Shown: one piece after another, positions 1,616 to 24,000 of the stretch
How positions within the stretch are numbered: position 1 is the first letter of the stretch
Layout of the letters: the number at the start of each line of letters is the position of its first letter
Assembly: GCA_031261705.1 (NCBI GenBank)
Contig: JAISJD010000044.1
Location: 1-24,000 of the forward strand
Origin: Lactobacillales bacterium
Lineage (GTDB): Bacteria; Bacillota; Bacilli; Lactobacillales; Streptococcaceae
Length of the DNA stretch: 24,000 nucleotides
Direction of reading: 5' to 3'
Made by a program: the position numbers and the translations under genes
Notes under the pieces: generated by a model
What the model was told of the DNA's origin: nothing
The model's input: the letters and a program-made list of their open reading frames with translations, nothing else
Databases searched by the model: none

Positions 1616-3988
1616 TTATTCAGACCGTAATGCTTCTACAGGGTCTTTTTTCGCCGCCATGCGTGCGGGAATCATGCCACCAATCAGTGTTAAAATAACA
1701 CTGATAGTGACTAGAAGAAGGGCGTGAATTGGGTTTAATTGCGCCACATTGCTTAGTCCCGTCGCATTCTTGATGAGAATATTAGCAGGAATAGTTAGAA
1801 GATAGGCAATCGCAATCCCTAAAAGTCCTGAAAAAGCACCAATAATAAAGGTTTCTGCATTAAAGACACGAGTAATATCTTTCTTACGAGCCCCAAGCGC
1901 ACGGAGAATCCCAATTTCTTTTGTCCGTTCGAGCACTGAAATATAGGTGATAATACCCACCATAATGAGTGAAACCACGAGTGAGATAGAGGCGAACGCC
2001 ACAAGTACCAAGGTAATCGCATCCATAATACCGCCTGTCATGTCGGTGATAGTTTTCGCTAAGTCCGTATAAATGACCTTATCTTCTATTGCCTTTCCTT
2101 TGTTGTAGGCGTCCAGATAGTTGACCACTCTTTCCTTGGCTTCAAAATTCTTTGGATAGACGTAAATCATCATTGGCGTGCTGTCTCCACCAAGGTAAGT
2201 CAAGGTTTGTTGCTTAGTTGCCACATCCATTTTTTCTAACGTCATGACATTGAAGTCTGAATTTTTTTGCGCAGTCACGATAGCAGAATCCTGTTCTCGT
2301 GCCAAAATATCCTCTACTAGCTGGTCACTATACGCAATCCCAACTCCTAAAATGCCCACCTGCACGTCCTCTTTTTGACGAACAATCGCCACCACCTTTA
2401 ATGTCGTGTCATTTTCATCCTCATAGAGCGCATTCAAGTCGTTATTCGGGAGGAAGTTTCCAGTAGGTAGCTCTGCATAAAAAGAATCATTTGGAACAAG
2501 TTTCATTTCCATGCCAAGCACCTGTTCAAAACTCATTTCCCCCGTCTTGCCAGAGAAACCTAAATTTTCCATCGTTGTTTTATCGACTTGATTTTTTTCA
2601 TCGACCACTAGCACGACCTCGTTCGCATTTTCTGGGTAACGACCGTCTAGCACGTCATAATTTTTTTGAAGATAGTTTCCTTTTTCACCCTTTAACATCG
2701 CCGGGTAGCTCGACAAGCTCATGCCACTCATACTAGAAATTTGCGAAGTGTTATTATCCATGCCGACAAGCCCCGTAGCCACCTTAACTATCTGCACGTT
2801 TCCGTCCACCTTACGAAGCAGATTCATGCCGACAATCCGTGTAAAACCAACACTACTGGCATCTTCTGGATTGACCTTTTCAACATAATTCACATAATCC
2901 GTCGTCAATTTATTTTGGTGAAGTACGTTATTATTCGTCGGGTCATAGACGTTGATGACCTTTTTCTTGGTAAATTTCTGAGTCCCACTAGACATTCGCT
3001 CCTGCATGACCTTCGCCGCCTCTGCATTATTCGTCATCGCTTGTGGGGCAACGATAATCGGAAATTCTGACAGCGCATCCGTCTGAAAATTATCAATCTG
3101 CTTTTGAAAACCATTGGATAGGCTCAAAATCAAGGCAATCCCGATAATTCCAATACTTGCCGCAAAAGCTGTCAAGGCAGTCCGCCACTTCTTCGTCGCA
3201 ATATTCCGCCCTGAAAGATTCAAGGCGGTAAAAATACTCATGGAAGTTTTTTTCAAGGAATAATCCGAACTTGTCCTGACTTCCTCATCTGGATTGCTGT
3301 CATGTATGATTTTCCCGTCCAAAAAATTGACAATCCGATCCGCATAGCTTTCCGCAAGCTCAGGGTTATGTGTCACCATGATAACGAGCTTATCCTTAGC
3401 GATTTCTTTGATTAAATCCATAATCTGCTCACTGGTTTTTGTATCAAGCGCACCAGTCGGTTCATCGGCTAGAATAATATCAGGGTCATTGGCTAACGCC
3501 CGAGCAATCGCCACCCGCTGCATTTGCCCACCTGAAAGCTGATTTGGACGCTTATGTACATGTTCCTCTAAGCCCACACGTTTCAAGGCATCCATCGCTT
3601 TTTCCTTTTTCACGGAGGAGGAAACACCGCTTAACGTCATTCCCATTTCCACATTTTCTAAAATGCTTAAATGACTAATCAGATTATAGCTCTGGAAAAT
3701 AAAGCCGACACTGTTATTCCGATATGCGTCCCAGTCCTTATCCTTGAAATTTTTCGTTGATTTTCCGTTTATCAATAAATCCCCAGAATCGTAGGTATCT
3801 AATCCGCCAACAATGTTTAACAAAGTCGTCTTTCCTGAACCACTTGGCCCCAAAATCGCCACAAATTCACTTTCTCTAAAATTGATACTGACATCATTTA
3901 AGGCAATTTGTGTAAATGTGTTCGTGGTATAGCTTTTTTTGATATTCTTTAGTTGAAGCATACGTCTCACTACTTTCTTTCGACTCAT
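1616..3988 (-). CDS. fused ABC transporter ATP-binding protein / FtsX(MacB)-type permease
   Basis: 790-aa ORF. The N-terminus has Walker [10 protein letters not shown], signature [15 protein letters not shown] and Walker [16 protein letters not shown] helix, a large extracytoplasmic region and C-terminal FtsX-like helices follow. The start may be the ATG at 3961 ([11 protein letters not shown]), since neither ATG has a strong RBS. Confidence 0.9.
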
Positions 3989-4806: not shown

Positions 4807-5610
4807 TTATCCTAATAAAAGCTTATCATCCGTCAGCGTTTCGCCGCTATTTTTATGGAAAAGCTCGAGTAAATCTGCCACCTTCAAGCGAGATTTTTCC
4901 TCACCCGACACATCCACCGCAATTTTCCCCTGATGAAGCATGATTAAGCGATTGCCATAACGAAGGGCATCCTCCATATCGTGCGTCACCATGAACGCCG
5001 TCAGCTTGTGCTCGCCAATTAATTTTTCCGTCAAATTCATCACCACGGCACTCGTTTTCGGGTCAAGAGCGGCGGTATGCTCATCTAAAAGAATCAACTG
5101 CGGCTTGATAATCGTTGCCATGAGAAGCGTGATTGCTTGGCGTTGCCCGCCTGAAAGTAGGCCAATTTCCGCCCCCAAGCGTTCCTCTAAGCCTAAGCCC
5201 AATGTTGCCAGCTGTTCCTTGAAAAATTGACGGTCACGTTTTTTCACCCCACTGGAAAGTCCACGAGATTGTCCACGTTTTAGCGCCAGAGCGAGATTTT
5301 CCTCTACTGTCAGCCGCACCGCCGTTCCCATTTTTGGATCTTGAAACACTCGACTGATATGTTTAGAGCGTTTTTCTACCTTTTGATTGGTAATATCTTC
5401 TTGATTGAGGAAAATTTTCCCTTCTTTTATCGGCAAGGTTCCAGCGATACTATTTAATAGGGTCGATTTTCCTGCTCCATTGCCTCCGATAATTGTCACA
5501 AAATCTTGCTCTTTCAGTTTTAAATCAATACCACGCAAGACGTGATTTTCATTAACCGTGCCTTTGCCAAAATATTGATGAAGCTGCTCAATTTTTAGAA
5601 TAGTATTCAT
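4807..5610 (-). CDS. ABC transporter ATP-binding protein (importer of the ABC_sub_bind / putative aromatic amino acid type)
   Basis: Walker A GGNGAGKST, signature LSGGQRQAITL, Walker B LILLDEHTAALD. GGAGGG RBS. ATGA overlap with the upstream permease gene. Confidence 0.9.
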   Translation of the reverse strand: MNTILKIEQLHQYFGKGTVNENHVLRGIDLKLKEQDFVTIIGGNGAGKSTLLNSIAGTLPIKEGKIFLNQEDITNQKVEKRSKHISRVFQDPKMGTAVRLTVEENLALALKRGQSRGLSSGVKKRDRQFFKEQLATLGLGLEERLGAEIGLLSGGQRQAITLLMATIIKPQLILLDEHTAALDPKTSAVVMNLTEKLIGEHKLTAFMVTHDMEDALRYGNRLIMLHQGKIAVDVSGEEKSRLKVADLLELFHKNSGETLTDDKLLLG

Positions 5611-6512
5611 GCTTTTTTCCCTCCTAACTTTTCTTTAAGGAGTGGGGTCGTCAAGCAAAGAATCAGTATCAATGCGGAAAATAGCTTGACGTCCTGTGCT
5701 TGAATTGGAAATTCCAAAATCACTGCCAGTAAGAAACGGTAAATCACGGCACCGAGTGCGACAGTTATCAGCCGAATCATGAGCGATTTATTGGGGAAAA
5801 GCACCTCTGCAATAATCACGGAAGCCAGTCCGACAACAATCGTCCCAACCCCAGAGTTTAAATCTGAGAACCCTAAATTTTGCGCAACCAAGGCACCCGC
5901 TAAGGCGATACAGCCATTGGATAACATGTATCCTAAAATTTTCATGACGTTTGTATTCACACCGTTTGCCTCACTCATTTCTTGATTATCCCCTGTCGCA
6001 CGCATGGCTAACCCGATTTCCGTCTTGAAAAAAACCACGAGGAGTGCCGTCACGACAAGTAAAAATAACAATCCTGCGACCATGACTGCATAGGTTTTTT
6101 CTAGCCCCAGCCCTTTGAAAAAGTCGAAAAACAGCTTTTCACCAAGGAGCGTGACCTGTGGCGAATTATTCATCACACGGGAGGTAATCGAGTACAGTCC
6201 CGTCATCGTGATAATCCCCGCTAATAAGGCTGGAATTTTCAGTTTTGTGTGCAAAAAACCGGTGAACAAGCCAGCTCCCGCCCCACCTAGAAAGGCAACA
6301 ATCGTCGCAAGTACAGGGTGCGACCCGCTCACAATCAGAACTGCTGCAATCGCTCCACCAAACGGAAAGGTGCCCTCACAAGTCATGTCGGGAATGTCCA
6401 AAATCCGAAAGGTGATATACACGCCAATCGCTAACAGCGCCCAGAGAATCCCCTGAGAGACCGAGGAGAGAAAAATATTTGGAAGAGAGAGTAGTAAATG
6501 ATAAAAATCCAT
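5607..6512 (-). CDS. ABC transporter permease
   Basis: 301-aa polytopic hydrophobic ORF, translationally coupled to the ATPase gene and sitting between the binding-protein and ATPase genes. Confidence 0.85.
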   Translation of the reverse strand: MDFYHLLLSLPNIFLSSVSQGILWALLAIGVYITFRILDIPDMTCEGTFPFGGAIAAVLIVSGSHPVLATIVAFLGGAGAGLFTGFLHTKLKIPALLAGIITMTGLYSITSRVMNNSPQVTLLGEKLFFDFFKGLGLEKTYAVMVAGLLFLLVVTALLVVFFKTEIGLAMRATGDNQEMSEANGVNTNVMKILGYMLSNGCIALAGALVAQNLGFSDLNSGVGTIVVGLASVIIAEVLFPNKSLMIRLITVALGAVIYRFLLAVILEFPIQAQDVKLFSALILILCLTTPLLKEKLGGKKA

Positions 6513-6539
6513 ATGATTTCCAACTTTCTATAATAACAC

Positions 6540-7508
6540 CTATTTTGGTGCTTGAATGCTTGTAGGGTCAATGCCGATTGCTTTTGCCATTTCCTCATTG
6601 ACGACTAATTTTAGCTCTTTTGCGGATTCAATCGGTAAATCTTGCGGTTTTTCGCCCTTTAAGACTTTTGCCGCCATGATGCCCGTTTGCTTACCTAAAG
6701 AAGTGTAGTCAATCCCAAAGGTCGCCAACGCCCCATTTTCCACCTGCTCCGTTGAACCGGTCACGACAACTGTTTTCTGTTCCTTTGCCACTTCTCCAAC
6801 AATCGGTGCCGCAGTCGCAAAGGTATTATCCGTTGGAATGTAAATCGCATCCGTATTTTTCGCTAGAGAGGTGATGACCGCTTGCACATCATTCGTTGAA
6901 TTCGCCGTCAAGACTTTCGCTGAAATCCCCGCTTTTTTCAAGGCTTTAATCGCTAAATCGGCTTGAATTTTCGAGTTGCTTTCGCCCGCATTATAGGCAA
7001 TCCCCACCGTTTTCGCCTTGGGTACAATGCTGATAAGTAAGTCAATTTGCTTCTCAATCGGCACCATATCGGTCGTTCCCGTCACATTTCCACCCGGCTT
7101 TTCTTCTGATTTCACCAATTTTGCTGCCACAGGATCCGTCACTGCTGTGATTAACAACGGAATATCGGTCGTTTCATTTAACAGCGCCGTTGCAGCTGGG
7201 GTCGCAATCCCAAGAAGTAAATCTGGCTTATCCTTCACCAATTTCTCACTCATAGATTTCAGATTATCCTGTGCGCCAGTCCCATATTGATAGTTGACCT
7301 TCAGATTTTTCCCCTCGGCAAAGCCTTCTTCTTTCAAGCCCTCAAGGAATCCCTTGTATGCTGAATCGAGTGAATCATGCTTCATCATCTGTAACACACC
7401 GACCGTTTTTTCTTTCGTATCTGACGTTTCTTTTTCACTATCTCCACAGGCAGTCAGCAACCCAATAGAAAGTAAGGCTAAACCTGCAACCAACATTCTT
7501 TTCTTCAT
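6540..7508 (-). CDS. ABC transporter substrate-binding lipoprotein (ABC_sub_bind family)
   Basis: Signal peptide with lipobox LLTAC. GGAGGA lies 7 nt before the ATG at 7508, and the track TTG at 7514 is probably spurious. Periplasmic-binding-fold-like sequence in first position of the operon. Confidence 0.85.
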   Translation of the reverse strand: MKKRMLVAGLALLSIGLLTACGDSEKETSDTKEKTVGVLQMMKHDSLDSAYKGFLEGLKEEGFAEGKNLKVNYQYGTGAQDNLKSMSEKLVKDKPDLLLGIATPAATALLNETTDIPLLITAVTDPVAAKLVKSEEKPGGNVTGTTDMVPIEKQIDLLISIVPKAKTVGIAYNAGESNSKIQADLAIKALKKAGISAKVLTANSTNDVQAVITSLAKNTDAIYIPTDNTFATAAPIVGEVAKEQKTVVVTGSTEQVENGALATFGIDYTSLGKQTGIMAAKVLKGEKPQDLPIESAKELKLVVNEEMAKAIGIDPTSIQAPK

Positions 7509-7562
7509 GAACAATTCCTCCCTTTATCTACTCTTCATTAGAAATTAATTAAAATTTATTCC

Positions 7563-7696: not shown

Positions 7697-8659
7697 TTAT
7701 TTTTCTTCTAAAGGCGCCATTCGAGTGGTCATGTAATTTTTTAACCATTCTTCACTTGCTTTTTCGTGAACGCAGTGTCCGTCCACTCGATTGGTCAGAT
7801 AAACGGTTGGTGCTTGCGTGCTTGTTGCGACCACAAAAGAGAAATTCTCAATGTTGGTTGCACAGCCCCATTCCCCTTGAGCATTCATCGCCACCACCGA
7901 TAAATCACCCGCACTGCCTTTACGTTTAAGCAACTGTTTTTCTAAGTGATTGACCGCAGTTTCACAAGCTGCTTGCGGACTCAAGCCGGTATTCATCAAG
8001 TGAACAATTTCATAGGAGATACAACCCTTCATCAAGTCCTCTCCAAGACCCGTTGCCGTGGCTGCCCCCACTTCACTATCCGCATAAAAGCCAGAGCCTG
8101 CAATCGGAGAATCCCCGACACGACCCGCTTTCTTCATAAATAAACCACTTGTCGAAGTCGCTGAAACCATGCTTCCTTGGGTATCTATCCCCACCATGCC
8201 CACTGTGTCATGACCACGATAAGGTTTCATTTCTAGTTGTTCCTCTTCCATTTCCTTCAAGCGATTCTTATAATGAATCTTTGCTCGGTCGGTCAGCATA
8301 TTTTTTCGTTCAAAGCCTTGCTTATGCGCATACTTTTCAGCACCAGCACCGACTAGAATATTGTTCAGCATTTCACCACTTAATTTTTTGGCAATAGAAA
8401 CTGGATTGGCAAAATCATGAATGCCTGCCACTGCTCCAATATCTAAGGTATCTCCGTCCATATATCCAGCATCTAGCTCCACCTGCATTTCTTCATTCGG
8501 CAGACCTCCGTAGCCAACAGATTTATAAAATGGAAAATCCTCTACCGCGCAGATTGCTTTCTCCACTGCTTGCCCAATTTCTCCATTTTCTTGCAATAAT
8601 TGGCTTGCCAGAGTGACTCCTTCTAGTGCCATTGTCCATGTAGCAATCATTCCCCACAT
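7697..8659 (-). CDS. N4-(beta-N-acetylglucosaminyl)-L-asparaginase-like Ntn hydrolase (glycosylasparaginase / Asparaginase_2 family), cytosolic
   Basis: GHDTVGMVGID autoprocessing/nucleophile motif, GRVGDSPIAGSGFYAD and AATATGLGEDLM blocks, closely resembling human AGA as I recall it. GAGGTG lies 6 nt before the ATG at 8659, and the track TTG at 8683 is less likely. No signal peptide. Confidence 0.85.
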   Translation of the reverse strand: MWGMIATWTMALEGVTLASQLLQENGEIGQAVEKAICAVEDFPFYKSVGYGGLPNEEMQVELDAGYMDGDTLDIGAVAGIHDFANPVSIAKKLSGEMLNNILVGAGAEKYAHKQGFERKNMLTDRAKIHYKNRLKEMEEEQLEMKPYRGHDTVGMVGIDTQGSMVSATSTSGLFMKKAGRVGDSPIAGSGFYADSEVGAATATGLGEDLMKGCISYEIVHLMNTGLSPQAACETAVNHLEKQLLKRKGSAGDLSVVAMNAQGEWGCATNIENFSFVVATSTQAPTVYLTNRVDGHCVHEKASEEWLKNYMTTRMAPLEEK

Positions 8660-8689
8660 GCCTTTCACCTCGCTTCTTTCCAATTTCTA

Positions 8690-9208
8690 TTAATAGATAT
8701 ATTTTTCTTTGTGTGTCTGAGTTTGACTGTTTTCCAACACTTCCAATGTCTTACAAATATTTTCCAATGCTGAATTTAAGCCTGCTGCCCCTTTTTTCGG
8801 CATTTTGACAATCGTCACTTTGTCTTTATAGGCTTGAATGACTTCACTACGTTCCTCTGACATCGCACAAACGACCTTCGCTGTTCCATTTTCTTCAATA
8901 GACTCCGCAAGTTCCGCACACATCATGGAAAATTCTTTGTAATCGTATGATGGGCCACAAATCACTGCTTCGACATCTAGTCGTTTCAACATGCCGTTAA
9001 TTTTCCGTTGAACGACTTCTTTATTTTCTTCATAGGTTCCTGTGCCACAATAGATGGTCACAATTAATTGTTGTTGATATTTTTCTAAGAGAGGTTTCAT
9101 CATCACTCCCGGACCTAGTGCTTCTTTTGTTGCAGTCAAAGGGACATGAATATCTTCTTTTGTGCCAACTCCTGCTTGAATTTGATTTAAAATCATTACT
9201 ACTCGCAT
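8690..9208 (-). CDS. GrdB N-terminal-domain-like protein (copy 1), no selenocysteine region
   Basis: 172 aa. MRVVMILNQIQAGVGTKE..YCGTG..VICGPSYDYKEF..IVKMPKKG parallels the GrdB N-terminus (RVVHYINQFFAGIGGEE..ICGD..AGPAFNAGRYG, from memory). GGAGGG RBS, ends with TAA, lies directly downstream of EIIC-1. Confidence 0.75.
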   Translation of the reverse strand: MRVVMILNQIQAGVGTKEDIHVPLTATKEALGPGVMMKPLLEKYQQQLIVTIYCGTGTYEENKEVVQRKINGMLKRLDVEAVICGPSYDYKEFSMMCAELAESIEENGTAKVVCAMSEERSEVIQAYKDKVTIVKMPKKGAAGLNSALENICKTLEVLENSQTQTHKEKYIY

Positions 9209-9244
9209 TTTTTTCCCTCCACTTGTCAGCTTTTTTTGCAGATT

Positions 9245-10618
9245 CTATAAATCGTCAAATGAAAGCATCTCTTCTGTGATGTTATCCGCAAATTTTGCAT
9301 CATCCGCTGCTTTTTCTTCTTTCAGATATTGTTTATCCATGATTTTAATGAAAGGCATGTAGACAAAAACACCTAAAATCAGCAAAATGAACTGTAATAA
9401 AGCACCTGCCCAGTTTGTCGCTAAGAAACCTGAAATGACAATCGGTGTCGTCCATGGAATGTTTATTCCACTACAAATGGGTACAAGTTTCATAGACATC
9501 GCTGCATACGAGATGCCGATATTCATTGCTGGAACTAATACAAATGGGAGAGCAATTGTTGGGTTAAGTACGATAGGTAACCCAAAAATAATTGGTTCAT
9601 TAATCCCGAAAATTCCCGGAATCAATGCTAATTTTCCTAGCTCTGTCACACGTCTTGATTTGCAGAATAAAATCATTGCAATTAATAAGGATAACGTCGA
9701 CCCCGCACCACCAAATGTTGCAAATAAATCTTGGAATTGTTGACTAATAATATGTCCTTGACCTACACCTGTTTTGAAAAATTCAATATTTTCAAGGGAT
9801 AACGTTTGTAAAATGGGGTTAAATACTGCTCCAACTACGGATCCACCATTCACACCAAAGAACCAAAAAACATGTAAAAAGACATACGCAATTTCCATCG
9901 CACCCACTGTATCTCCTAAATGAAGCAGTGGTGTTTGTAAGAATTTAAAAATAAGGTCAAACGCATTGGTTCCAAAGAAACCAAGAATTAAGTTTACTGC
10001 AAAGAAAAATGCCATGGAAATCGTTGCTGGAATCAATGCCGCAAAGGAATCGACCACCATTTGAGGAACACCCGCAGGCATTTTAATGACCCAACCACGA
10101 CGCTCAACCCAAGCATATAAGCTAACGGATAGGAATGCACAGATAATGCCGATAAATATTCCTTTTGCACCAACCCAACCAAGAGAAATCCCAGAAATAT
10201 TGACATCTAGCGGGTCTTTCATGCCATCAACTGGGACACGCCCAGACACACGAAACGGCATTAATAAAAACCAGCTCATCAAGGTTACTGCCGCCCCAAA
10301 AATCGGGGTTGTCTTAATTTGACGCGCATAGGAATAACCTATCCCAACTACTGCAAAAATTGCCATGATTGAAAATGTCGCATCACTAGGTTTAGAAATA
10401 AACGCAGCTAACGTTTCTCCAGTATTTTTATTCACAACGGTATTTTCTAACCAATTCGTCCATGCTGGAATGGGGAAATTCCCAATCAGCAAGAAAATCG
10501 AACCAGCGATTAATAAAGGTGTCGATACCAAGAACCCATCACGTATAGACATTAAATATTTATTTCTCGCAACCTTTTCAGCAACTGGCAACATGACAGT
10601 TTCTAACTTTTCAAACAT
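9245..10618 (-). CDS. PTS EIIC permease, lactose/cellobiose/chitobiose (ChbC/CelB) family, copy 1
   Basis: 457 aa. RRGWVIKMPAGVP, FWFFGVNG, GGAGSTLSL and PGIFGINEPIIFGLPIVLNP match blocks of E. coli ChbC. GAGGGAG RBS before the ATG. Confidence 0.9.
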   Translation of the reverse strand: MFEKLETVMLPVAEKVARNKYLMSIRDGFLVSTPLLIAGSIFLLIGNFPIPAWTNWLENTVVNKNTGETLAAFISKPSDATFSIMAIFAVVGIGYSYARQIKTTPIFGAAVTLMSWFLLMPFRVSGRVPVDGMKDPLDVNISGISLGWVGAKGIFIGIICAFLSVSLYAWVERRGWVIKMPAGVPQMVVDSFAALIPATISMAFFFAVNLILGFFGTNAFDLIFKFLQTPLLHLGDTVGAMEIAYVFLHVFWFFGVNGGSVVGAVFNPILQTLSLENIEFFKTGVGQGHIISQQFQDLFATFGGAGSTLSLLIAMILFCKSRRVTELGKLALIPGIFGINEPIIFGLPIVLNPTIALPFVLVPAMNIGISYAAMSMKLVPICSGINIPWTTPIVISGFLATNWAGALLQFILLILGVFVYMPFIKIMDKQYLKEEKAADDAKFADNITEEMLSFDDL

Positions 10619-10725
10619 TGTAAATTCTCCCTCTTCATAACGCTAGTTCTGCTTATAACTTGCTCTAAGCAAAACTAGCATCTTTTTTGTAGATTTTTAG
10701 TTGTCGTGCTTTAATTCTTAAAATT

Positions 10726-11823
10726 TTATTCTTTTATTCCCATAGACTCTTTAAACAGGTCTACATCCTCCCAAGTTAAGCTTCTGCAAAACTCGGTTAA
10801 TAGATGAATGGTTTGCTTGTAGTCTTCTTGATGAACCAACAAACGAGACGAGTGCATATAGCGAGTAGGCAAGGATAAGGTCATCGTGACAATTCCGTCC
10901 ATTGCTTTATGGATATTACAAGCGTCGGTGCCCCCAACGGTCATAAAATCATAACGAATATTTAGGTTCAATTCCTTAATAATTTTTTCCATATGCTGCA
11001 ATAAACCACGATTGGCAATCGTTAAGGAATCCAGCACCGATAAAATACTGCCCCCGCCAAGTGTAATACCTCCTTGGTCAAACGGCGTATCTTGGGCAGT
11101 CGTGACATCTAAAGCAATTGCGACATCTGGTCGAATAAAATGAGCCGCCGTTCTAGCGCCACGTATGCCGACTTCCTCTTGCACAGAACCTGCAAAGTAA
11201 AGATCGGCTTCATGATTTTCCCCTTGAAGATTTCGCAAGACCTCCAATCCAACGCCGACACAAACACGGTCGTCCCACGCTTTTCCCATAAGGTAGTCTG
11301 GATTATTCATCTGACGGAATTTCACATGAGGGGTAATCATATCCCCGATTTGAATGCCCAACGCTTCAATTTCTTGCTGATTTTGTACCCCCATATCTAG
11401 GTAAAAATCAATCGGTTTCATGACTTTCGCTTTTTCATCTTCTGGCATGCCATGCGGCGCACGACTGCCAATCACTCCGATATATTTGTCTCCATTTGTT
11501 GTAGTAACGGTCATTTCTTGAGCGGGCATGACATGGCCCCACCAGCCACCGATTGGCAATAATTTTAAATAACCGTCTGAGGTCATTTGACGAACCATAA
11601 AACCAACCTCGTCCATGTGCGAGGAAAGCATGACTCTTGGCCCTCCTTGCCCTTTTTTATTCAGGAGGATAGAGCCTAGATTATCATACTGTATCTCATC
11701 AACTAGAGGCGCACCATATTCTTTAACAATCCTCGACACTTCACGCTCACAACCGCCAATTGCGTCTGCCTCACTTAATCTTTTCAGTAAATCTAAGTCC
11801 ACTTCTTTGATTGTTTTTATCAC
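10726..11823 (-). CDS. M42 family metallo-aminopeptidase (FrvX/PepA/YsdC type), canonical active site
   Basis: Motifs SSHMDEVG, AWDDRVCVG, VQEEVGIRG, ALDVTTA and RYMHSS are present. AAGGAGG lies 8 nt before the GTG at 11823. The track ATG at 11874 would overlap the upstream gene by 38 nt. Confidence 0.85.
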   Translation of the reverse strand: MIKTIKEVDLDLLKRLSEADAIGGCEREVSRIVKEYGAPLVDEIQYDNLGSILLNKKGQGGPRVMLSSHMDEVGFMVRQMTSDGYLKLLPIGGWWGHVMPAQEMTVTTTNGDKYIGVIGSRAPHGMPEDEKAKVMKPIDFYLDMGVQNQQEIEALGIQIGDMITPHVKFRQMNNPDYLMGKAWDDRVCVGVGLEVLRNLQGENHEADLYFAGSVQEEVGIRGARTAAHFIRPDVAIALDVTTAQDTPFDQGGITLGGGSILSVLDSLTIANRGLLQHMEKIIKELNLNIRYDFMTVGGTDACNIHKAMDGIVTMTLSLPTRYMHSSRLLVHQEDYKQTIHLLTEFCRSLTWEDVDLFKESMGIKE

Positions 11824-11836
11824 AGAACTTTCCTCC

Positions 11837-12904
11837 TTAGCGATTTTCACATTTGAATGCGTCAATCTGGTCATTGGTCAGTTGCAGGATGAATTTTACA
11901 AGAGCTGTTTGCACTGCTTGGTAATCTGCTAAAGCAATCGCTTGTAGTGGAGTATTCATGTTACGCACAGCCGTATTGAGAAATAAGGTCGGTGCTCCTG
12001 TCCGCAATTTGTTAATCCAACCGGCATCAGAATCTTCCATAGAATAGTAATATTGATAAGGAATTTCTTCCTTCTGGCACAATTCTTTTAGCGTATTGAC
12101 TAGCAAACGGTTAGGAAGAACGGTCGTGTCATAGTAAGTGATGAGTAACCCTTTGCCAAGTTCACCAATGACGTCCATCGCATCCTTTTGATAGTCCATT
12201 GCGCGTTCCGTATCAAGGACAAGCGCTAAATCAGGTTTAACCAAATTCGTTGCGGTTTGCGCTCCTCGCAAGCCCACATGCTCTTGAACGGCACAACCGA
12301 CATATAAATCAAAATCAAAACTTTCCTCTTTGACTGCTTCGAGAAGGTGAACCCCTAAAGCTGCACCTAGTCGACCGTTCCAATTATGCGCATAGATTTC
12401 TTTTCCGTTTGAAGAGGCGAAGAAAGGCGTATCAAACGTCACCATATCTCCAAAAGTAATGCCTGAATTTTCCGCTTCTTGCGCACTAGATAGTCCAATA
12501 TCCAGCAAGACGATGTTATTTTTATCAAGAGCAAGGTTGGCTTGATTGAAACCTAAAATCACCCCTTTAAAAGTATCGCCTGCTCGATTGGTTAATTTTA
12601 CCACTTGTCCTAGAAGAGCATTCGGTTCCACTTTTCCTAAAGCTAGCGCTTGTATCGTCCCATTTTCTTGAATTTTCTTAACGATAAAACCTAATTCATC
12701 CATATGTGCATGAACCATCACACGTGCGGCATCTGGATTGGTACTTTTCTTCACCGCATAAATTGAGCCTAAATTATCGTAAACAATTTCATCACACAAC
12801 GGTTCATATTTTTTTCGTAAATACTCTGAAATTTTCTTTTCATTTCCTGAAATACTTGGAATATCTGTTATTTCTGTCAATCGTTGGCTCATTGTTTCCA
12901 CCAT
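11837..12904 (-). CDS. M42-family paralog with substituted metal ligands (probable pseudo-peptidase or altered-function subunit)
   Basis: 355 aa with the M42 fold throughout (HAHMDELGF, VQEHVGLRGA, VLDTERA). WNGR replaces WDDR, QEH replaces QEE and NMNT replaces YMHS. GGGGGA RBS. Confidence 0.8.
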   Translation of the reverse strand: MVETMSQRLTEITDIPSISGNEKKISEYLRKKYEPLCDEIVYDNLGSIYAVKKSTNPDAARVMVHAHMDELGFIVKKIQENGTIQALALGKVEPNALLGQVVKLTNRAGDTFKGVILGFNQANLALDKNNIVLLDIGLSSAQEAENSGITFGDMVTFDTPFFASSNGKEIYAHNWNGRLGAALGVHLLEAVKEESFDFDLYVGCAVQEHVGLRGAQTATNLVKPDLALVLDTERAMDYQKDAMDVIGELGKGLLITYYDTTVLPNRLLVNTLKELCQKEEIPYQYYYSMEDSDAGWINKLRTGAPTLFLNTAVRNMNTPLQAIALADYQAVQTALVKFILQLTNDQIDAFKCENR

Positions 12905-12953
12905 TTCCCAGTCCCCCTATAAATCACAAGAAATCATTTTTTTATTTTTGCTT

Positions 12954-13484
12954 TTAGTAACAATACTGCTCTACAAATTCAGAAATATCTGCTTGTGTTG
13001 TTTTAAGCTGACACAATTGAAGCATTTTTTGGATTGATTCTGTTAAGCCAATGCCCCCTTTTTTGGGCATTTTCACAATGGTTACATCCTCTTTATGCTT
13101 TTCAATGCCCTCGACACATTCCACAGACATGGCTGCAACCGTTGGAATTTGTAGCTTTTGTTGAATCATTAAGGCAACATCTCCTGCCATGATTCCGTAT
13201 TTTTCATAATTAAAACAAGGACCACATAACACGACATCTGGTTTTAATTTTTTCACCATAGCGGTTAATTTCAAGGCAGTTTCTTCAGGGTTTGCTAGAT
13301 AAAAATCATCTCCACAATAAAGGGTTGCGAGAATACTTCCATCCACTTCTGAAAGATAGTTTTCAAACATTTTTGCCGAGCCTACTGGAAGCTTCTTTCC
13401 GCCTAGCGGTTGCATACCCTTTTCCTTTCCACCTAATCCCGCTTGAATTTGGTCTAAAATGACAATAATTTTCACACTGCTCAT
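12954..13484 (-). CDS. GrdB N-terminal-domain-like protein (copy 2), no selenocysteine region
   Basis: 176 aa. VKIIVILDQIQAGLGGKEKG..LYCGDDFY..VLCGPCFNYEKYG..IVKMPKKGGIGL. The ATG lies 3 nt after the EIIC-2 stop codon, suggesting translational coupling. Ends with TAA. Confidence 0.75.
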   Translation of the reverse strand: MSSVKIIVILDQIQAGLGGKEKGMQPLGGKKLPVGSAKMFENYLSEVDGSILATLYCGDDFYLANPEETALKLTAMVKKLKPDVVLCGPCFNYEKYGIMAGDVALMIQQKLQIPTVAAMSVECVEGIEKHKEDVTIVKMPKKGGIGLTESIQKMLQLCQLKTTQADISEFVEQYCY

Positions 13485-13487
13485 CTC

Positions 13488-14825
13488 CTACAAATCTTCT
13501 ATTATAAGGTCATCAAATGAAAGCTCTTCTTCTGCTTCTTCCGCTGCTTTTGCTTCATCTTTCAAATATTGATTATCTAACGCTTTAATGAATGGATAAT
13601 AAATGCCACAGCCTAAAATTAACAGAACAAATTGCCAAAGTGCTGCGACAATACTTCCTGTACTTAGATAACCTGAGAATCCAATTGGTGTTGTCCAAGG
13701 AAGTGAAACCCCTGTAGTATAAGGAATAATTCCTAAATTCGTCACCAAAGTAGATAATAGTAAATTAATCACTGGTGTTAAGATAAACGGAATAATAATA
13801 ATTGGATTTAAAACAACGGGTAGCCCAAAAATAATGGGTTCATTGATACCGAAAATTCCAGGAACAATTGACAGCTTTCCTAATTGTTTAATCCGTTGAG
13901 ATTTACAGAACAACATCATGATAATCACTAAGGATAACGTCGAACCGCCTCCTCCAAAGTTCGTAAAGAAATTAGAGAATGGGTCTGTAAAAATATTTGG
14001 TAAGGCGTGACCAGACTGGAACGCTTCCAAATTTTCCATGGTCAAAATTTTGGTAATTGGTGCAAACACAGAGTTGGCAACTGCTGGCCCATTAATCCCA
14101 AAGAACCAGAAAATTGTACAAGCCATACTGTAAACAATTTGTGCCCCTAGAGTATTCCCTACATTTTTCAATGGCGATTGTAAAAATTCAAAAATAAAAT
14201 TATGTGCGGTTTCAAAAGAGGTCAAACCAAAACCAATTCTAACAAAGAAGAACAAAACCATAACAATAGCACTAGGAACAAGTGCTTCAAATGATTTTGT
14301 GACTGCTGGCGGAACACCCGGTGGCATTTTTATCGTCCAGCCTTTTTTCGTGACGTAAGAATAGATTAAAACCGAGATAAGTGCGACAACCAATCCAACG
14401 AAAATGCCGTTTGTACCTAAATGTTCAAATCGTAAACCGCTCACAGGGTCTTTTACCCCTTCAATAAAAATCTTGTGGGGGGTTAAAATTAAGAACCCAA
14501 TCGCTGCAACTGCCGCTGCTTGAATCGAATCTACCTTAAGCTCACGACCGTAAGCATAGGCTGTTCCTAAACAAGAAAAGAAACCAACCGTGTTAAAGAC
14601 TGACCCTGAAACTGCGGTAAACCAAGATTCCCAGCCCTCACCAAAAATTCCAGCCCAAAATTCCGACCAATTGGGGATTGGAAAATTGGCAATCAATAAG
14701 AATATTGATGCGACAATAATGAGTGGTGTCGTAATCAGGAAACCATCCCGAATCGCAATTAGGACTTTATTCGTCCCCAGCTTTCCAGCAGCAGGCATCA
14801 ATACTTTTTCAAACTTTTCAAACAT
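13488..14825 (-). CDS. PTS EIIC permease, lactose/cellobiose/chitobiose (ChbC/CelB) family, copy 2
   Basis: Same conserved blocks as copy 1 (KKGWTIKMPPGVP, FWFFGINGP, GGGGSTLSL, PGIFGINEPIIFGLPVVLNP). Start placed at the ATG at 14825 (MFEKFEKV), preceded by GAGGGAGGA and matching the copy 1 start. The track start at 14963 adds 46 aa that copy 1 lacks. Confidence 0.85.
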   Translation of the reverse strand: MFEKFEKVLMPAAGKLGTNKVLIAIRDGFLITTPLIIVASIFLLIANFPIPNWSEFWAGIFGEGWESWFTAVSGSVFNTVGFFSCLGTAYAYGRELKVDSIQAAAVAAIGFLILTPHKIFIEGVKDPVSGLRFEHLGTNGIFVGLVVALISVLIYSYVTKKGWTIKMPPGVPPAVTKSFEALVPSAIVMVLFFFVRIGFGLTSFETAHNFIFEFLQSPLKNVGNTLGAQIVYSMACTIFWFFGINGPAVANSVFAPITKILTMENLEAFQSGHALPNIFTDPFSNFFTNFGGGGSTLSLVIIMMLFCKSQRIKQLGKLSIVPGIFGINEPIIFGLPVVLNPIIIIPFILTPVINLLLSTLVTNLGIIPYTTGVSLPWTTPIGFSGYLSTGSIVAALWQFVLLILGCGIYYPFIKALDNQYLKDEAKAAEEAEEELSFDDLIIEDL

Positions 14826-14870
14826 TGTAAATCCTCCCTCTTCACTAAGCGAAGACAACTTCCCAGAAAT

Positions 14871-14888
14871 GTTGTCGTGCTCGACTTC
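14871..14888 (-). promoter_or_regulatory. composite leader motif GAAGTCGAGCACGACAAC, with halves recurring in the EIIC-1 and yitT leaders
   Basis: Minus-strand GAAGTCGAGCAC (14888-14877) is identical to 18102-18091 in the yitT leader. Minus-strand AGCACGACAAC (14881-14871) is identical to 10710-10700 in the EIIC-1 leader. The core GTCGAGCACGAC is a GTCG-N4-CGAC inverted repeat. Confidence 0.35.
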
Positions 14889-14972
14889 TTTTCTGCTCCA
14901 TTTCACTTCGCATACAGTCGCTACTAAACAGCAAGCTGTAAGTAGGACTAGCAACTTTTTCATTCCTTTTAT

Positions 14973-16280
14973 TTATAAGCTCGCCAAGCGGTACATCGCC
15001 AGCGTATAAATCTCCATATTCTTCAGCAAATCGGCTTCGTTCATCCATTCATCTTCTTTGTGAGCAATCCCCTTTTGCCCAGGAAAAGATGGACCGAATG
15101 CAACGATATTTGGCATAAAGCGTGCATAGGTTGCGCCTGTTGTCGTGACAGGTGTGCCGTCTAGCCCTGTTTCCTCCTCATAAACCTCACTTAATAGGCG
15201 AATGAACGGCGTGTCTTTTGGCTGATTGGTACTCTTCAAACGACGCACTACTTCTAATGTAGAGTGAGGTGGCAGGTGTTGTTCCAAGGCATGAATCACC
15301 GTTTCTTCATTCACCGTTACAGGATAACGAATCGCTAGGTGAAGTAGCATACCCTCCTCCTCTTTTTCTAAAATGACGGGTGTCACGATAAGTTTGCCTG
15401 ACTCTTCGTCTTCAAAAGCAATCCCCAAGCCTTCGCCATAATGTTTTTCGTCTAATGAGTCTGCAAGCCATTCAAAATAGCTTTGTAACGCATTTTTCGG
15501 CAAGAGTTTTGCAAGCTGGTCGGCAAGCATTGTGATCGCATTGACGCCAAGCTCTGGTGCATTGGACGGAGAAGATTTCCCAGAAACCTCAATCGCTGCA
15601 CCGTTCACACTTGTCTTTACATAACTTGAAACATGGTCACGTGCCATGTCGCCCGTGATTTCCCCCAGTTCAGCGAGTTCATCCTTAGATAGAGAAGTCC
15701 GAATTTCAACATTGACAATGCCACGTTCCCCGTAAACCACCGGATATTTCCCGTCAGGCGTGAATCCGAAAATCGGTGGCTTTTCTTGTGCCAAATAAAG
15801 CGGAATATCATGAGAACCGCTCTCTTCATCACTTCCAAAGAGGACGCGAATCGGTGTTTTCGGCACGACACCCAATTCGTTTAGAATTTTCAGACCAAAC
15901 AGGCAAGAAATAATCGGCCCCTTATTGTCTAAAATTCCGCGAGCATAGAGCTTATCCCCTCTTTTCGTTAGAAGAAATGGATCGGATGTCCATTTTTGAT
16001 TGGTCACAGGAACCACGTCCAAATGTCCGAGCACACCGTAATAGTCCTTCGCATCCGCACCAAGCTGTGCATAGCCTACAGCATTCCCCACAATATCGGT
16101 GTCAAGACCATAACCTTGAGCGAGCTGTGTTGCCACTTCAATCGCCTGTTTCGATGCTTGCCCAAAAGGTGCGTCCGCTTGTGCCTCGCCAAGAACACTT
16201 GGCACTTCAATGACGGTCGCTAAATCCTTTAAATAATCGTTCCACTCCTCTCTGATTTTTTCCTTAATTCTTCTTTCCAT
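14973..16280 (-). CDS. M20 family dipeptidase (PepV/Sapep-like)
   Basis: 435 aa with GHLDVVP, ARGILDNKGP and FGSDEESGS metal/catalytic motifs. GGAGGA RBS. Confidence 0.85.
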   Translation of the reverse strand: MERRIKEKIREEWNDYLKDLATVIEVPSVLGEAQADAPFGQASKQAIEVATQLAQGYGLDTDIVGNAVGYAQLGADAKDYYGVLGHLDVVPVTNQKWTSDPFLLTKRGDKLYARGILDNKGPIISCLFGLKILNELGVVPKTPIRVLFGSDEESGSHDIPLYLAQEKPPIFGFTPDGKYPVVYGERGIVNVEIRTSLSKDELAELGEITGDMARDHVSSYVKTSVNGAAIEVSGKSSPSNAPELGVNAITMLADQLAKLLPKNALQSYFEWLADSLDEKHYGEGLGIAFEDEESGKLIVTPVILEKEEEGMLLHLAIRYPVTVNEETVIHALEQHLPPHSTLEVVRRLKSTNQPKDTPFIRLLSEVYEEETGLDGTPVTTTGATYARFMPNIVAFGPSFPGQKGIAHKEDEWMNEADLLKNMEIYTLAMYRLASL

Positions 16281-16332
16281 ACTCTTTCCTCCACTTCCTT
16301 TTGATAAAGCTTTTGTCTTGATAGTTAGAGTC

Positions 16333-22400: not shown

Positions 22401-24000
22401 CTATTTATCAATCGCTACTGCCATTCTATTGGGACTATAAGAAGTAGCTACTTGACCCTCAGACACCCAGAATTTTCCATAAACGGGGTCGGTCACATGG
22501 AAGCTATTGCCATCAAATCCCGTCACTAACCACACATGAAGATTCAACACCTTTAAAGCACCATAATAGTAGCCACCTATTCTTGGCGCAGCAATAGGCC
22601 CACTCGTTCCCCAGACCACCACTGGATTTCCTTTTAGCAGCTCTGTTTTAAAGGCGGCTGTGCTCGAACCGCTAATATCTCTTGAATTTGGCGCATATCT
22701 TTTTGCATACGGCGTGAATGCTCGTGGGAAAATGGTATGATACCCACTTGTATCAGTAGGATTTCCGTTAAATCCGTCCGCCGGGTTGCCCCATGCAGGA
22801 ACTCTTGGGACAGCATTGGTTACTTGATGAATATTCTGACCTCTCGTAGCGCCTAGATAGCTTAACGCCATGTATAGTGAAAATTCCTCGCAACCGTTCC
22901 AATACCCCATTTGATTTTGATTATAATAAGGAACGTTCATCAGCGTTTTTTCACCAGCAGCAGTAGCGCCAACCGTTCTTTTGTTTGCTGTAATATATCC
23001 GTAGGCAGTTTTTAGCACGGGATACCCGTTTTTAGTCATGACACGACCTTGAACATTAAGTACAGTTCCAGCAGATATTGGGTTGCCAACTGAAGTTAAG
23101 TCTGCATTGTTATAATAATTTGCGGAAGTTTTAAACATTACTCTCCCTGGTGCCTGCATATAATAATTTTGAATATCCGCAGGGGCTTTTTTATAGGAAG
23201 AAGAAAGACCCGGTGCGGGTGCCCCTTTTTTCACTAATCTCATTTCAATTGCTTCTAGACGAAAGCCATAGCCCGAGCTACCACTCACACCATCATTTTT
23301 CGTCCACCCTAACCATCCAAAGTCTTCAACATGACCTCGATAATATACATCGAAATAACGGGATAAATCACCGGTAAGTCGAACTTGAAGCGCTTCCAAT
23401 CGTTTCCCTTTACCAGTTGTTCCACTCAACGCTCCGTTTGCTACATAATTTTGCCAGCCATAATCTTCGACATGTGTTTTATACTGTACCCCACCAGAAA
23501 TAGTGGAAGTCTCAATTTTAACTTTCAATCCCTCTAAACGTTTGGCTTGACCGCTAGTCCCACTCAATTCTCCATTTTTTTTTGCCGCTTGCCAACCAAT
23601 ATCTTGAATGTGGCTCTGATAAGAAATAGCTAAGGCATTGTTATCAATAGATGGAAGTGTTGTTGGGCCGGGTGCTTTTTCACCTTTTTTTACTAAACTT
23701 ATTTGAATTGCTTCTAGTCTAAGAGCAAAACCGCAAGTTCCAGCATCTTTCCCATTGCTCGCCCAATCTAGCCAACCAAAATCTTCAACATGCACTCGAT
23801 AATAAATATCGTATTTTGAAGCGAACTCACCGGTAAGTTTCATTTGGATTGCTTCTAAACGTTTGGCTTGACCACTTGTCCCACTCATTTCACCATTGGC
23901 TACAAAGTTTTGCCAGCCATAATCTTCAACATGTGTTTTATATTCTATACCACCGTTACTATCTGTATCTGCAACTTTTATCTTAATCCCTTCTATGCGT
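22401..24000 (-). CDS. secreted/cell-wall-associated protein: ChW repeats + SH3-like segment + C-terminal C39-like cysteine peptidase domain (5' end outside the window)
   Basis: The frame stays open upstream of the track Met at 23888 to the window edge (RIEGIKIKVADTDSNGGIEYKTHVEDYGWQNFVANGE...). It has at least five Y.xHVxDxGWxxW..NGxxxGTxGxxxRLEAI units. The C-terminus NVPYYNQNQMGYWNGCEEFSLYMALSYLG ... NLHVWLVTGFDG resembles YvpB-like C39_2 domains. Confidence 0.85.
   Translation of the reverse strand, partial: RIEGIKIKVADTDSNGGIEYKTHVEDYGWQNFVANGEMSGTSGQAKRLEAIQMKLTGEFASKYDIYYRVHVEDFGWLDWASNGKDAGTCGFALRLEAIQISLVKKGEKAPGPTTLPSIDNNALAISYQSHIQDIGWQAAKKNGELSGTSGQAKRLEGLKVKIETSTISGGVQYKTHVEDYGWQNYVANGALSGTTGKGKRLEALQVRLTGDLSRYFDVYYRGHVEDFGWLGWTKNDGVSGSSGYGFRLEAIEMRLVKKGAPAPGLSSSYKKAPADIQNYYMQAPGRVMFKTSANYYNNADLTSVGNPISAGTVLNVQGRVMTKNGYPVLKTAYGYITANKRTVGATAAGEKTLMNVPYYNQNQMGYWNGCEEFSLYMALSYLGATRGQNIHQVTNAVPRVPAWGNPADGFNGNPTDTSGYHTIFPRAFTPYAKRYAPNSRDISGSSTAAFKTELLKGNPVVVWGTSGPIAAPRIGGYYYGALKVLNLHVWLVTGFDGNSFHVTDPVYGKFWVSEGQVATSYSPNRMAVAIDK
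23229..24000 (-). repeat. tandem ChW (clostridial hydrophobic W) coding repeats, alternating two subtypes
   Basis: Degenerate nucleotide repeats recur with a period of about 290-300 nt, for example ttttgccagccataatcttc(a/g)acatgtgttttata at about 23450-23485 and 23908-23943. Protein units alternate between a GTSGQAKRLE type and a G(F/Y)(A/G)(L/F)RLEAI type. Confidence 0.7.

Follow-up and report, generated by a model that had tools for sequence, protein, structure and literature searches.

Relation to described loci

The closest described relative of the genes treated here is the ega locus of Enterococcus faecalis, which is reported to comprise a GntR regulator, a dipeptidase, the glycosylasparaginase EgaG, the EIIB and EIIC components of a lactose/cellobiose (Lac)-type phosphotransferase system (PTS) and a "putative oxidoreductase" for which GrdB (selenoprotein B) is cited (bioRxiv 10.1101/2024.05.30.596650). 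Papers citing Combret et al. (Res Microbiol 175:104169) state that the locus is required for the use of glycoprotein-derived N-acetylglucosaminyl-L-asparagine (GlcNAc-L-Asn) by this organism, and it is reported to matter in E. faecalis infection. The EIIA of the GlcNAc-L-Asn PTS is given as CelA1, a product of the cel locus (PMC11976118); in strain OG1RF the GrdB-like gene is reported to be a pseudogene (bioRxiv 10.1101/2024.05.30.596650). Here we describe a larger locus of this kind in a 24,000-nucleotide (nt) stretch of Lactobacillales DNA, hereafter the window, in which each of two EIIC genes is followed by a gene for a small protein resembling the N-terminal part of GrdB (GrdB-like, GrdBL).

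In L. casei BL23 the alf-2 genes for a GntR regulator, a PepV-type M20 peptidase and the glycosylasparaginase AsnA2 are reported to catabolise GlcNAc-Asn from core N-glycans, the peptidase being proposed as a glycopeptide trimmer (PMC6960285). Unlike the window, alf-2 is described as using a major facilitator superfamily permease and a separate sugar kinase instead of a PTS, and its description includes no GrdB-like gene. A Latilactobacillus curvatus record carries an N(4)-(beta-N-acetylglucosaminyl)-L-asparaginase, a GntR regulator, a GrdB-family protein, a PTS IIC and a Sapep dipeptidase, and the L. sakei genes around LSA1692 have been named consistently with this (PMC3146418).

The window holds one co-directional gene array on the minus strand (7697–17061) in the order GntR, M20 dipeptidase, EIIC-2, GrdBL-2, M42 aminopeptidase, M42 aminopeptidase, EIIC-1, GrdBL-1, glycosylasparaginase. 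It thus has on one strand all five elements shared with ega: the GntR regulator, the M20 dipeptidase, the glycosylasparaginase, a Lac-type EIIC and a GrdB-like gene after the EIIC gene. It differs in having two EIIC–GrdBL modules, two M42 peptidases and no EIIB of its own, whereas E. faecalis has a single module with its own EIIB. As a stand-in for the E. faecalis locus we used an Enterococcus-like contig (L194), which shows the exact ega order, an intact GrdBL and the same EIIC tail (see below). Because the gene set matches both the published description of ega and the alf-2 trio, we read the window as an expanded ega-type locus; judged by its sequence it is a duplicated, mosaic ega-type GlcNAc-Asn PTS locus carrying small proteins of family NF041545.

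The EIIC–GrdBL pair

An earlier note, made from the sequence of the window alone, described each EIIC gene as being followed by a small open reading frame (ORF), and this is borne out by two pairs with small proteins of 172 and 173 amino acids (aa). EIIC-2 (445 aa; 13488..14825, minus strand), of the enterococcal module type, precedes GrdBL-2 (12954..13475, minus strand), and EIIC-1 (457 aa; 9245..10618, minus strand), of the clostridial/erysipelotrichial module type, precedes the unusually diverged GrdBL-1 (172 aa; 8690..9208, minus strand). Both permeases match PF02378 [3.5e-60 for EIIC-2, 9.6e-62 for EIIC-1] and TIGR00410 (396 and 398 bits, respectively, against a cut-off of 236). EIIC-2 is related to the ChbC of Bacillus cereus [3.8e-97, 3QNQ] and keeps the GINEP motif, of which I327-N328-E329-P330 is invariant in our EIIC alignment (A3). 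By these measures the two are bona fide Lac/cellobiose-family permeases.

For a census we combined the window with 80 genomic loci, fetched by means of the family profile, and 109 metagenomic loci, which together hold 151 GrdBL genes. An EIIC gene lies within 10 kb of 148 of these, and in 135 cases it is immediately upstream. Over the same distance a glycosylasparaginase gene accompanies 123 GrdBL genes, EIIB 109, M20 107, EIIA 84 and M42 50. Where at least 6 kb of flank was available on both sides (59 loci), EIIC was present in 59/59 and EIIB in 45/59. The gaps between the EIIC and GrdBL genes are mostly below 150 nt, often 10–20 nt, and the pairwise identities of the EIICs run parallel to those of the GrdBL proteins (r=0.89). 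The earlier note had argued for a functional EIIC-partner relationship; in the co-occurrence counts the pairing is conserved through Bacilli, Clostridia and Erysipelotrichia, so that the link to EIIC is very strong and strongly supported.

Two arrangements are common. In Clostridia and Erysipelotrichia, including Clostridioides difficile, the order is PRD/Mga regulator, RDD, EIIA, EIIB, EIIC, GrdBL, glycosylasparaginase, M20, CutC, YitT; in enterococci it is GntR, M20, glycosylasparaginase, (EIIB), EIIC, GrdBL, M42, M42. The CutC-family gene (PF03932, function obscure) follows the glycosylasparaginase–M20 pair in 67/151 loci, for example at 10693–11367 of the C. difficile locus L195, and CutC may perhaps belong to glyco-amino-acid or amino-sugar catabolism instead of copper homeostasis. 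Genes for MupG, YdjC/ChbG and GH4 proteins are present in subsets of the loci.

Decay of the pair is recurrent. One locus (L191, 5128–8432) has an insertion sequence (IS; DDE_Tnp_1) inside the GrdBL gene together with a frameshifted EIIC tail, and there are many GrdBL fragments of 100–143 aa, for instance in E. gallinarum and L. curvatus.

An acidic tail on the paired EIICs

The EIICs that are paired with GrdBL end in an acidic-hydrophobic motif, which is usually doubled: ...EE(D/E)[ILF]S[FL]DD[LI]S[FL]DDL-COOH. Of the 137 EIICs encoded in these loci, 131 have the unit [ILF]-S/D-[FL]-D-D-[LI] at the extreme C-terminus; the net charge over the final 35 residues is -9. Within the window EIIC-2 ends in ...EELSFDDLIIEDL (ISFDDLSFDDL type), its acidic tail, the hallmark of the subfamily, being ELSFDDLIIEDL (13491..13526, minus strand), and EIIC-1 ends in ...EEMLSFDDL (9248..9274, minus strand), with the motif in single copy. 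The tail is absent from the unpaired Lac-family EIICs found in three of the loci (L002, L009 and L021) and from ChbC 3QNQ.

The association was also approached from the other side, by scanning a metagenome collection for the back-translated tail. This gave 110 matches, 64 of them at the C-terminus of an EIIC ORF; a GrdBL gene follows directly in 63 of the 64, and in the lone exception only 110 nt of contig are left after the EIIC gene. Of the other 46 matches, five belong to incomplete copies of this locus, and 41 have none of these gene families around them, as chance would predict. The tail is a new hallmark of the GrdBL-paired EIICs and is exclusively associated with a GrdBL gene.

An AlphaFold2 model of EIIC-2 (predicted local distance difference test score, pLDDT, 80) has its final helix running to residue 434; residues 433–445 are unstructured, with pLDDT <50. 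The predicted disorder suggests that the tail may behave as a short linear docking motif.

Relationship of GrdBL to selenoprotein B

The blocks that the earlier note saw in both small proteins (QAGxGxKE, YCG, CGPxxxY, AMSxE and MPKKGGxGL) prove to be motifs conserved throughout the family. Its suggestion of a kinship to the N-terminus of selenoprotein B also holds, since PF07355 is matched by GrdBL-1 [1.4e-22] and GrdBL-2 [2.3e-28] over profile positions 2–170 of 347. The profiles TIGR01917 and NF040794 are matched over about positions 1–160 of 431–435, with 49–90 bits against cut-offs of 602–800. GrdBL aligns to GrdB from residue 1 to about 165, and the selenocysteine (Sec)-containing catalytic half is absent. 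From these alignments GrdBL is a true homologue of the N-terminal ~165 residues of GrdB.

GrdB, GrdF and GrdH share with GrdBL the Gly-rich loop after strand 1 (NQFFAGIGGEE in GrdB, DQIQAGLGGKE in GrdBL), the CGD motif and PDVVxxGPAFN. GrdBL differs in lacking the Sec codon and the C-terminal catalytic half, and the MPKKGGxGL loop and a set of lysines are specific to it. Both small ORFs of the window end at TAA with no in-frame TGA, as had been noted. Whereas GrdB sits in a Stickland-reductase operon, the GrdBL genes lie beside a PTS EIIC: in the window and 190 related loci we found no grdA, grdE, grdC/D or thioredoxin genes, the neighbours being PTS components and peptidases.

NF041545 (171 positions) is covered over positions 1–169 by GrdBL-1 (211.6 bits) and 1–171 by GrdBL-2 (240.9 bits), both above the curated cut-off of 175 bits. 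A search of 1.84 billion representative sequences with the family profile gave 681 relatives, of which about 40 are very strong and have a length of about 173 aa; the remainder are classical GrdB proteins, many of them shortened to about 350 aa through reading of the Sec TGA as a stop. The GrdBL family is thus real, distinct and already catalogued, as NF041545 "GrdB_like_no_Se", "GrdB-related putative oxidoreductase". In sequence terms nothing sets the proteins of the window apart from that family; hundreds of equally long RefSeq proteins bear the name, which is a guess based on homology. It appears in Enterococcus, Vagococcus, Carnobacterium, Latilactobacillus, Clostridium baratii, C. difficile and others, and the record of a GrdBL protein of the window is MDR0922429.1, from a Lactobacillales metagenome-assembled genome. 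The statement that such proteins have no described function is still true biochemically, but the family had been curated and the gene named within the published ega locus. Literature searches on GrdB with EIIC, on the family name and on the structure of the GrdB N-terminal domain gave nothing directly relevant, and the family profile, searched against the sequences of the Protein Data Bank (PDB), turned up no relative of solved structure (best E 0.09).

The AlphaFold2 model of GrdBL-2 (pLDDT 97.3) is a three-layer alpha/beta fold. Over 400 unique GrdBL sequences the residues conserved in at least 93% are G16, G18, G35, C57, G58, K72, K79, D83, C87, G88, P89, Y93, E122 and the loop P140-K-K-G-G-x-G-L147. 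The near-invariant residues lie at the C-termini of strands. Lysines K72, K79, K141 and K142 are conserved in GrdBL but not at the aligned positions of 12 GrdB representatives (alignment A2).

A third GrdBL subtype has motifs nearer to those of GrdB (LNHVxAGMGSDE, AMSEENPAV). It occurs in loci L100, L125, L144, L194 and L195, its hosts being E. hirae, E. durans, E. villorum, Carnobacterium, Vagococcus, C. sardiniense and C. difficile, with the enterococcal loci in the published ega order. In a protein of 489 aa (P0242) a GrdB N-terminal domain is apparently followed by a C-terminal part resembling phosphate acetyltransferase, which would be either a fusion or an assembly artefact. Family members of odd length were also considered as Rosetta-stone fusions and rejected; all are singletons, namely deletion chimeras (GrdBL–MupG and EIIC–GrdBL; P0148, P0171), mis-started ORFs or IS-split genes.

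Proposed role of GrdBL

With a probability of roughly 0.55 we favour the view that this expanded ega-type locus serves the PTS-dependent use of glyco-amino acids and glycopeptides, and that GrdBL is an accessory subunit docked on the EIIC tail and not a phosphocarrier. By analogy with the described loci the substrates would be GlcNAc-Asn and probably peptides that contain it, derived from glycoproteins. The two Lac-family EIICs would import the substrate and phosphorylate its sugar with the help of ordinary Lac-type EIIA and EIIB whose genes lie outside the window. Trimming of flanking residues would fall to the M42 pair and the M20 dipeptidase, and the glycosylasparaginase would split GlcNAc(-6-P)-Asn into aspartate and the sugar. 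The extra M42 pair here, and M81, M19 and M3 peptidases in other genomes, suggest glycopeptides as substrates besides the free glyco-amino acid.

GrdBL itself would be a dedicated cytoplasmic subunit of this EIIC subfamily. We infer that it most likely docks on the disordered acidic tail, the contact being made where the C-terminal edge of its beta-sheet presents a family-specific, lysine-rich surface formed by K72, K79 and the MPKKGGxGL loop. Once docked it might take up the charged end of the substrate (amino acid or phosphate) or keep hold of it, and thereby aid transport or the hand-over to the peptidases; for the simplest substrate it would be helpful and not essential.

The concept of an EIIC-specific accessory protein has, by analogy, experimental support in this PTS family. 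The small proteins CelG, CelH and CelI of the E. faecalis CelB2C2 cellodextrin PTS are reported to be encoded always downstream of celC2 and to be required for the function of that Lac-family EIIC (PMC11976118). Like GrdBL they are EIIC-specific small proteins encoded just downstream; unlike it they are of unrelated sequence (DUF3188, DUF3284), CelH is a membrane protein, and the requirement was shown by experiment for CelGHI.

Several points weigh against the proposed role. The tail and the EIIC subfamily are confounded, and the partner of the tail could be EIIB or a peptidase. A global electrostatic argument for binding to the tail had to be given up, the median isoelectric point of GrdBL being 5.95 and the whole protein not basic, which leaves the local lysine cluster alone as an argument from charge. 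The OG1RF pseudogene and the frequent truncated, IS-split or deletion-fused copies argue that the role is conditional or auxiliary and can be dispensable. GrdBL-1 is evolving unusually fast, and the conserved Cys57, Glu122 and Tyr93 are as compatible with an enzyme as with a binding module.

More tentatively, we consider it possible that GrdBL and the SFDDL-type tail form a previously unrecognised fourth component of Lac-family PTS, which binds or acts on the amino-acid or peptide part during transport. If true this would extend a sugar PTS to sugar–peptide conjugates and give a first function to a domain shared with selenoprotein B. The locus type would let gut and meat-associated Firmicutes (enterococci, Clostridioides difficile, Clostridium baratii, Erysipelotrichaceae, Latilactobacillus) use the GlcNAc-Asn stubs and glycopeptides of degraded host or food glycoproteins. 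GrdBL is the one universally conserved component that is still functionally unexplained; proof of its role, as subunit or enzyme, would complete the pathway, extend the short list of EIIC-specific accessory proteins (CelGHI) and give a hint on the N-terminal domain of selenoprotein B.

Alternative roles

GrdBL might instead act as a soluble pathway enzyme, whether oxidoreductase, lyase or hydrolase, that works without a cofactor or by means of a thiol, its adjacency to EIIC being a matter of operon economy; this we think rather unlikely. The substrate would be the phosphorylated glyco-amino acid, or the glycosylamine-6-phosphate freed by the glycosylasparaginase, whose gene lies within 10 kb of 123 of the 151 GrdBL genes. 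The sole homologue of GrdBL is the N-terminal domain of a catalytic selenoprotein, as its NCBI name ("putative oxidoreductase") reflects, but the Sec-containing catalytic half is missing and neither grdA nor grdE is found nearby. Cys57 does not vary in alignment A2, which comprises both GrdBL and GrdB sequences, and 97% of the 400 unique GrdBL sequences have it, and E122, Y93 and D83 are near-invariant at the C-termini of strands, the usual active-site edge of this fold; however, Cys57 is replaced by Ser in 6 sequences and Cys87 by Ala in 18, no nucleotide- or flavin-binding family scores above threshold, and there is no enzyme among the close fold neighbours. The linkage to EIIC (148/151) is moreover tighter than that to any enzyme, the hydrolases varying between loci (ASNase2, M42, M20, M81), and OG1RF, in which the gene is reported as a pseudogene, is the strain of that group's PTS growth studies (bioRxiv 10.1101/2024.05.30.596650; PMC11976118).

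It is less probable still that GrdBL is a regulator or sensor which informs the transporter or the locus regulator of substrate flux or redox state, for example by gating EIIC through the tail. C57 and C87 lie at the ends of neighbouring strands and could form a redox switch, the fold resembles that of CheY-like receiver domains (the best PDB matches listed, TM-score <=0.49), and the reported OG1RF pseudogene suggests that GrdBL is dispensable for basic function. Nevertheless the phospho-acceptor constellation of receiver domains is absent, no DNA-binding or signalling domain was matched, and the regulators vary from locus to locus (GntR, PRD/Mga-type, sigma-54/PRD) while GrdBL is constant.

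That the small genes are decaying, functionless relics of a GrdB gene is very unlikely. The reported OG1RF pseudogene, the many truncated clusters, the IS-split copy in L191 and the divergence of GrdBL-1, about 2 standard deviations beyond expectation, would fit such decay. Against it stand 400 unique full-length sequences of a constant ~173 aa with 20 positions of at least 93% identity in three bacterial classes, the confident model (pLDDT 97), and the fact that no invariant residue is lost from either copy in the window, each of which has a good ribosome-binding site.

The earlier note had seen the small proteins as standing where an EIIB would normally be, and had suggested, among other options, a non-canonical replacement, which would pass the phosphoryl group from EIIA to the EIIC-bound sugar. 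Its observation that the 24 kb hold no Lac-type EIIA or EIIB is correct: hidden Markov models of the EIIB (60) and EIIA (48) proteins encoded in related loci matched nothing at E<=10, and the best tblastn E was 0.011. The window shares the lack of a locus EIIB with 12 other fully flanked loci, including that of E. canis (L001), and 13 of the 59 fully flanked loci have none within 8 kb. GrdBL and the Lac/cellobiose EIIB (PF02302, ChbB/CelB) are alike in small size, in a Rossmann-like alpha/beta architecture and in the Gly-rich loop that follows strand 1, and both work, or would work, with a Lac-family EIIC. An hhalign comparison of GrdBL with the 60 neighbouring EIIBs gave a weak local match of 44 columns (probability 44%, P 2.3e-4), in which "PDVVxCGPxxxY...IPV" of GrdBL residues 74–123 resembles "PDVIMLGPQVKY...iPv" of EIIB residues 51–94; this may reflect a remote common origin of Rossmann-like domains or convergence.

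Yet a canonical PF02302 EIIB with the CxxGxSTS loop stands beside the same EIIC–GrdBL pair in 45 of the 59 fully flanked loci, sometimes between the EIIC and GrdBL genes. The neighbouring genes of 108 aa code for textbook Lac-type EIIB (KIYLFCSQGMSTS; PF02302) and EIIA (PF02255). The P-loop cysteine motif is absent from GrdBL, as the note had said: the first loop, (D/N)Q(I/T)QAGxGxKE or NHVxAGMGSDE, has neither Cys nor His, and the aligned position is an Asp or Asn that is not invariant. PF02302 gave no match to GrdBL at E<=0.01. The fold search that the note had put forward as a check on EIIB kinship, run with Foldseek on the AlphaFold2 model against the PDB, returned no EIIB among the 50 matches listed, the best being CheY-like or flavodoxin-like. 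E. faecalis is reported to have a locus-encoded EIIB and the trans-encoded CelA1 (bioRxiv 10.1101/2024.05.30.596650; PMC11976118), and trans-encoded Lac-type EIIA and EIIB are reported to serve several enterococcal EIICs (PMC11976118). Since most loci have a canonical EIIB, the loop has no Cys and no EIIB is among the 50 PDB matches listed, we dismiss a stand-in for EIIB as extremely unlikely, and the absence of EIIB from the window is most simply explained by EIIA and EIIB encoded in trans, that is, by ordinary trans-complementation.

Two module types

The two EIICs are 45.3% identical and the two small proteins 35.7%. The earlier note took this as the mark of an old duplication; the divergence is indeed ancient, but a simple local duplication it is not, the modules being of two distinct ancient types. 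EIIC-2, GrdBL-2, the M42 pair, the M20 dipeptidase and the GntR regulator are most similar to enterococcal proteins, those of E. canis and Enterococcus sp. HY326, with identities of 82–84% for EIIC-2 and 66–69% for GrdBL-2. EIIC-1 is 72–75% identical to EIICs of Thomasclavelia/Clostridium-type loci ordered EIIA-EIIB-EIIC-GrdBL-ASNase2-M20-CutC, and the glycosylasparaginase is 71.6% identical to the enzyme of one Thomasclavelia-type locus (L024). Because the best matches differ by module, we see here the juxtaposition of two long-separated module types and not a local duplication. GrdBL-1 is only 42–46% identical to the partners of those EIICs, whereas 61.6 +/- 8.8% would be expected at such EIIC identity, and on these figures it is evolving fast.

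The glycosylasparaginase (7697..8683, minus strand) is an EgaG/AsnA2-like Ntn hydrolase [PF01112, 5.5e-63] with an HDT autoprocessing motif; its closest solved relatives are glycosylasparaginases [3.1e-56, 194 bits], with isoaspartyl peptidases behind [~1e-32]. The M20 "Sapep"/PepV-like dipeptidase (14973..16280, minus strand) matches Pfam Peptidase_M20 and TIGR01887 (393.6 bits against 207.95). The GntR/HutC-type regulator of the LSA1692 subfamily (16333..17061, minus strand) has Pfam GntR and UTRA domains and scores 323 bits against the NF041547 cut-off of 275; its position is that of the GntR regulator in the ega and alf-2 loci.

The first and second M42 aminopeptidases (11837..12904 [PF05343, 8.6e-63] and 10726..11874 [PF05343, 2.1e-91], both minus strand) form a tandem pair at 10726–12904; they are 30.6% identical and their ORFs share 38 nt. 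An M42–M42 pair comes after the GrdB-like gene in enterococcal-type loci, and the conservation of the same diverged pair in all of these suggests a hetero-oligomeric TET-like peptidase.

Start codons and neighbouring genes

GrdBL-1 begins, as the earlier note stated, at an ATG 36 nt past the EIIC-1 stop (TAG), with GGAGGG 6 nt upstream. For GrdBL-2 the note had proposed a start 3 nt after the EIIC-2 stop (TAG), but that ATG (13484; 176 aa) has no usable Shine-Dalgarno sequence. The GTG at 13475 is preceded at 7 nt by AGGAG, which overlaps the EIIC-2 TAG stop, and gives the same start as in homologues (MKII...). Since ribosome-binding site and homologues both favour this GTG, GrdBL-2 is most likely of 173 aa and starts 12 nt after the EIIC-2 stop. 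EIIC-2 starts at the ATG at 14825, behind GAGGGAGG, in agreement with all homologues; a longer ORF reaching to 14963 would add 46 codons (14826–14963, MKKLLVLLTACC..., resembling a lipoprotein signal), which are found in no homologue and were rejected as spurious.

Scans of the window for promoters and terminators gave matches no commoner than in shuffled sequence, and a generic HutC/GntR operator pattern occurred at chance level. On the same strand, 182 nt downstream of the glycosylasparaginase gene, lies an ABC uptake system (4807–7514) composed of a PF04392 binding protein, a BPD_transp_2 permease and an ATPase; it was present in 0/189 related loci. Two further genes are unrelated to the finding: that at 1616–3988 codes for a fused ABC ATPase/FtsX (MacB-like) protein of 790 aa, and that at 22401–23888 for a protein that looks secreted and combines five ChW repeats with DUF5776 and a C39-like peptidase domain.

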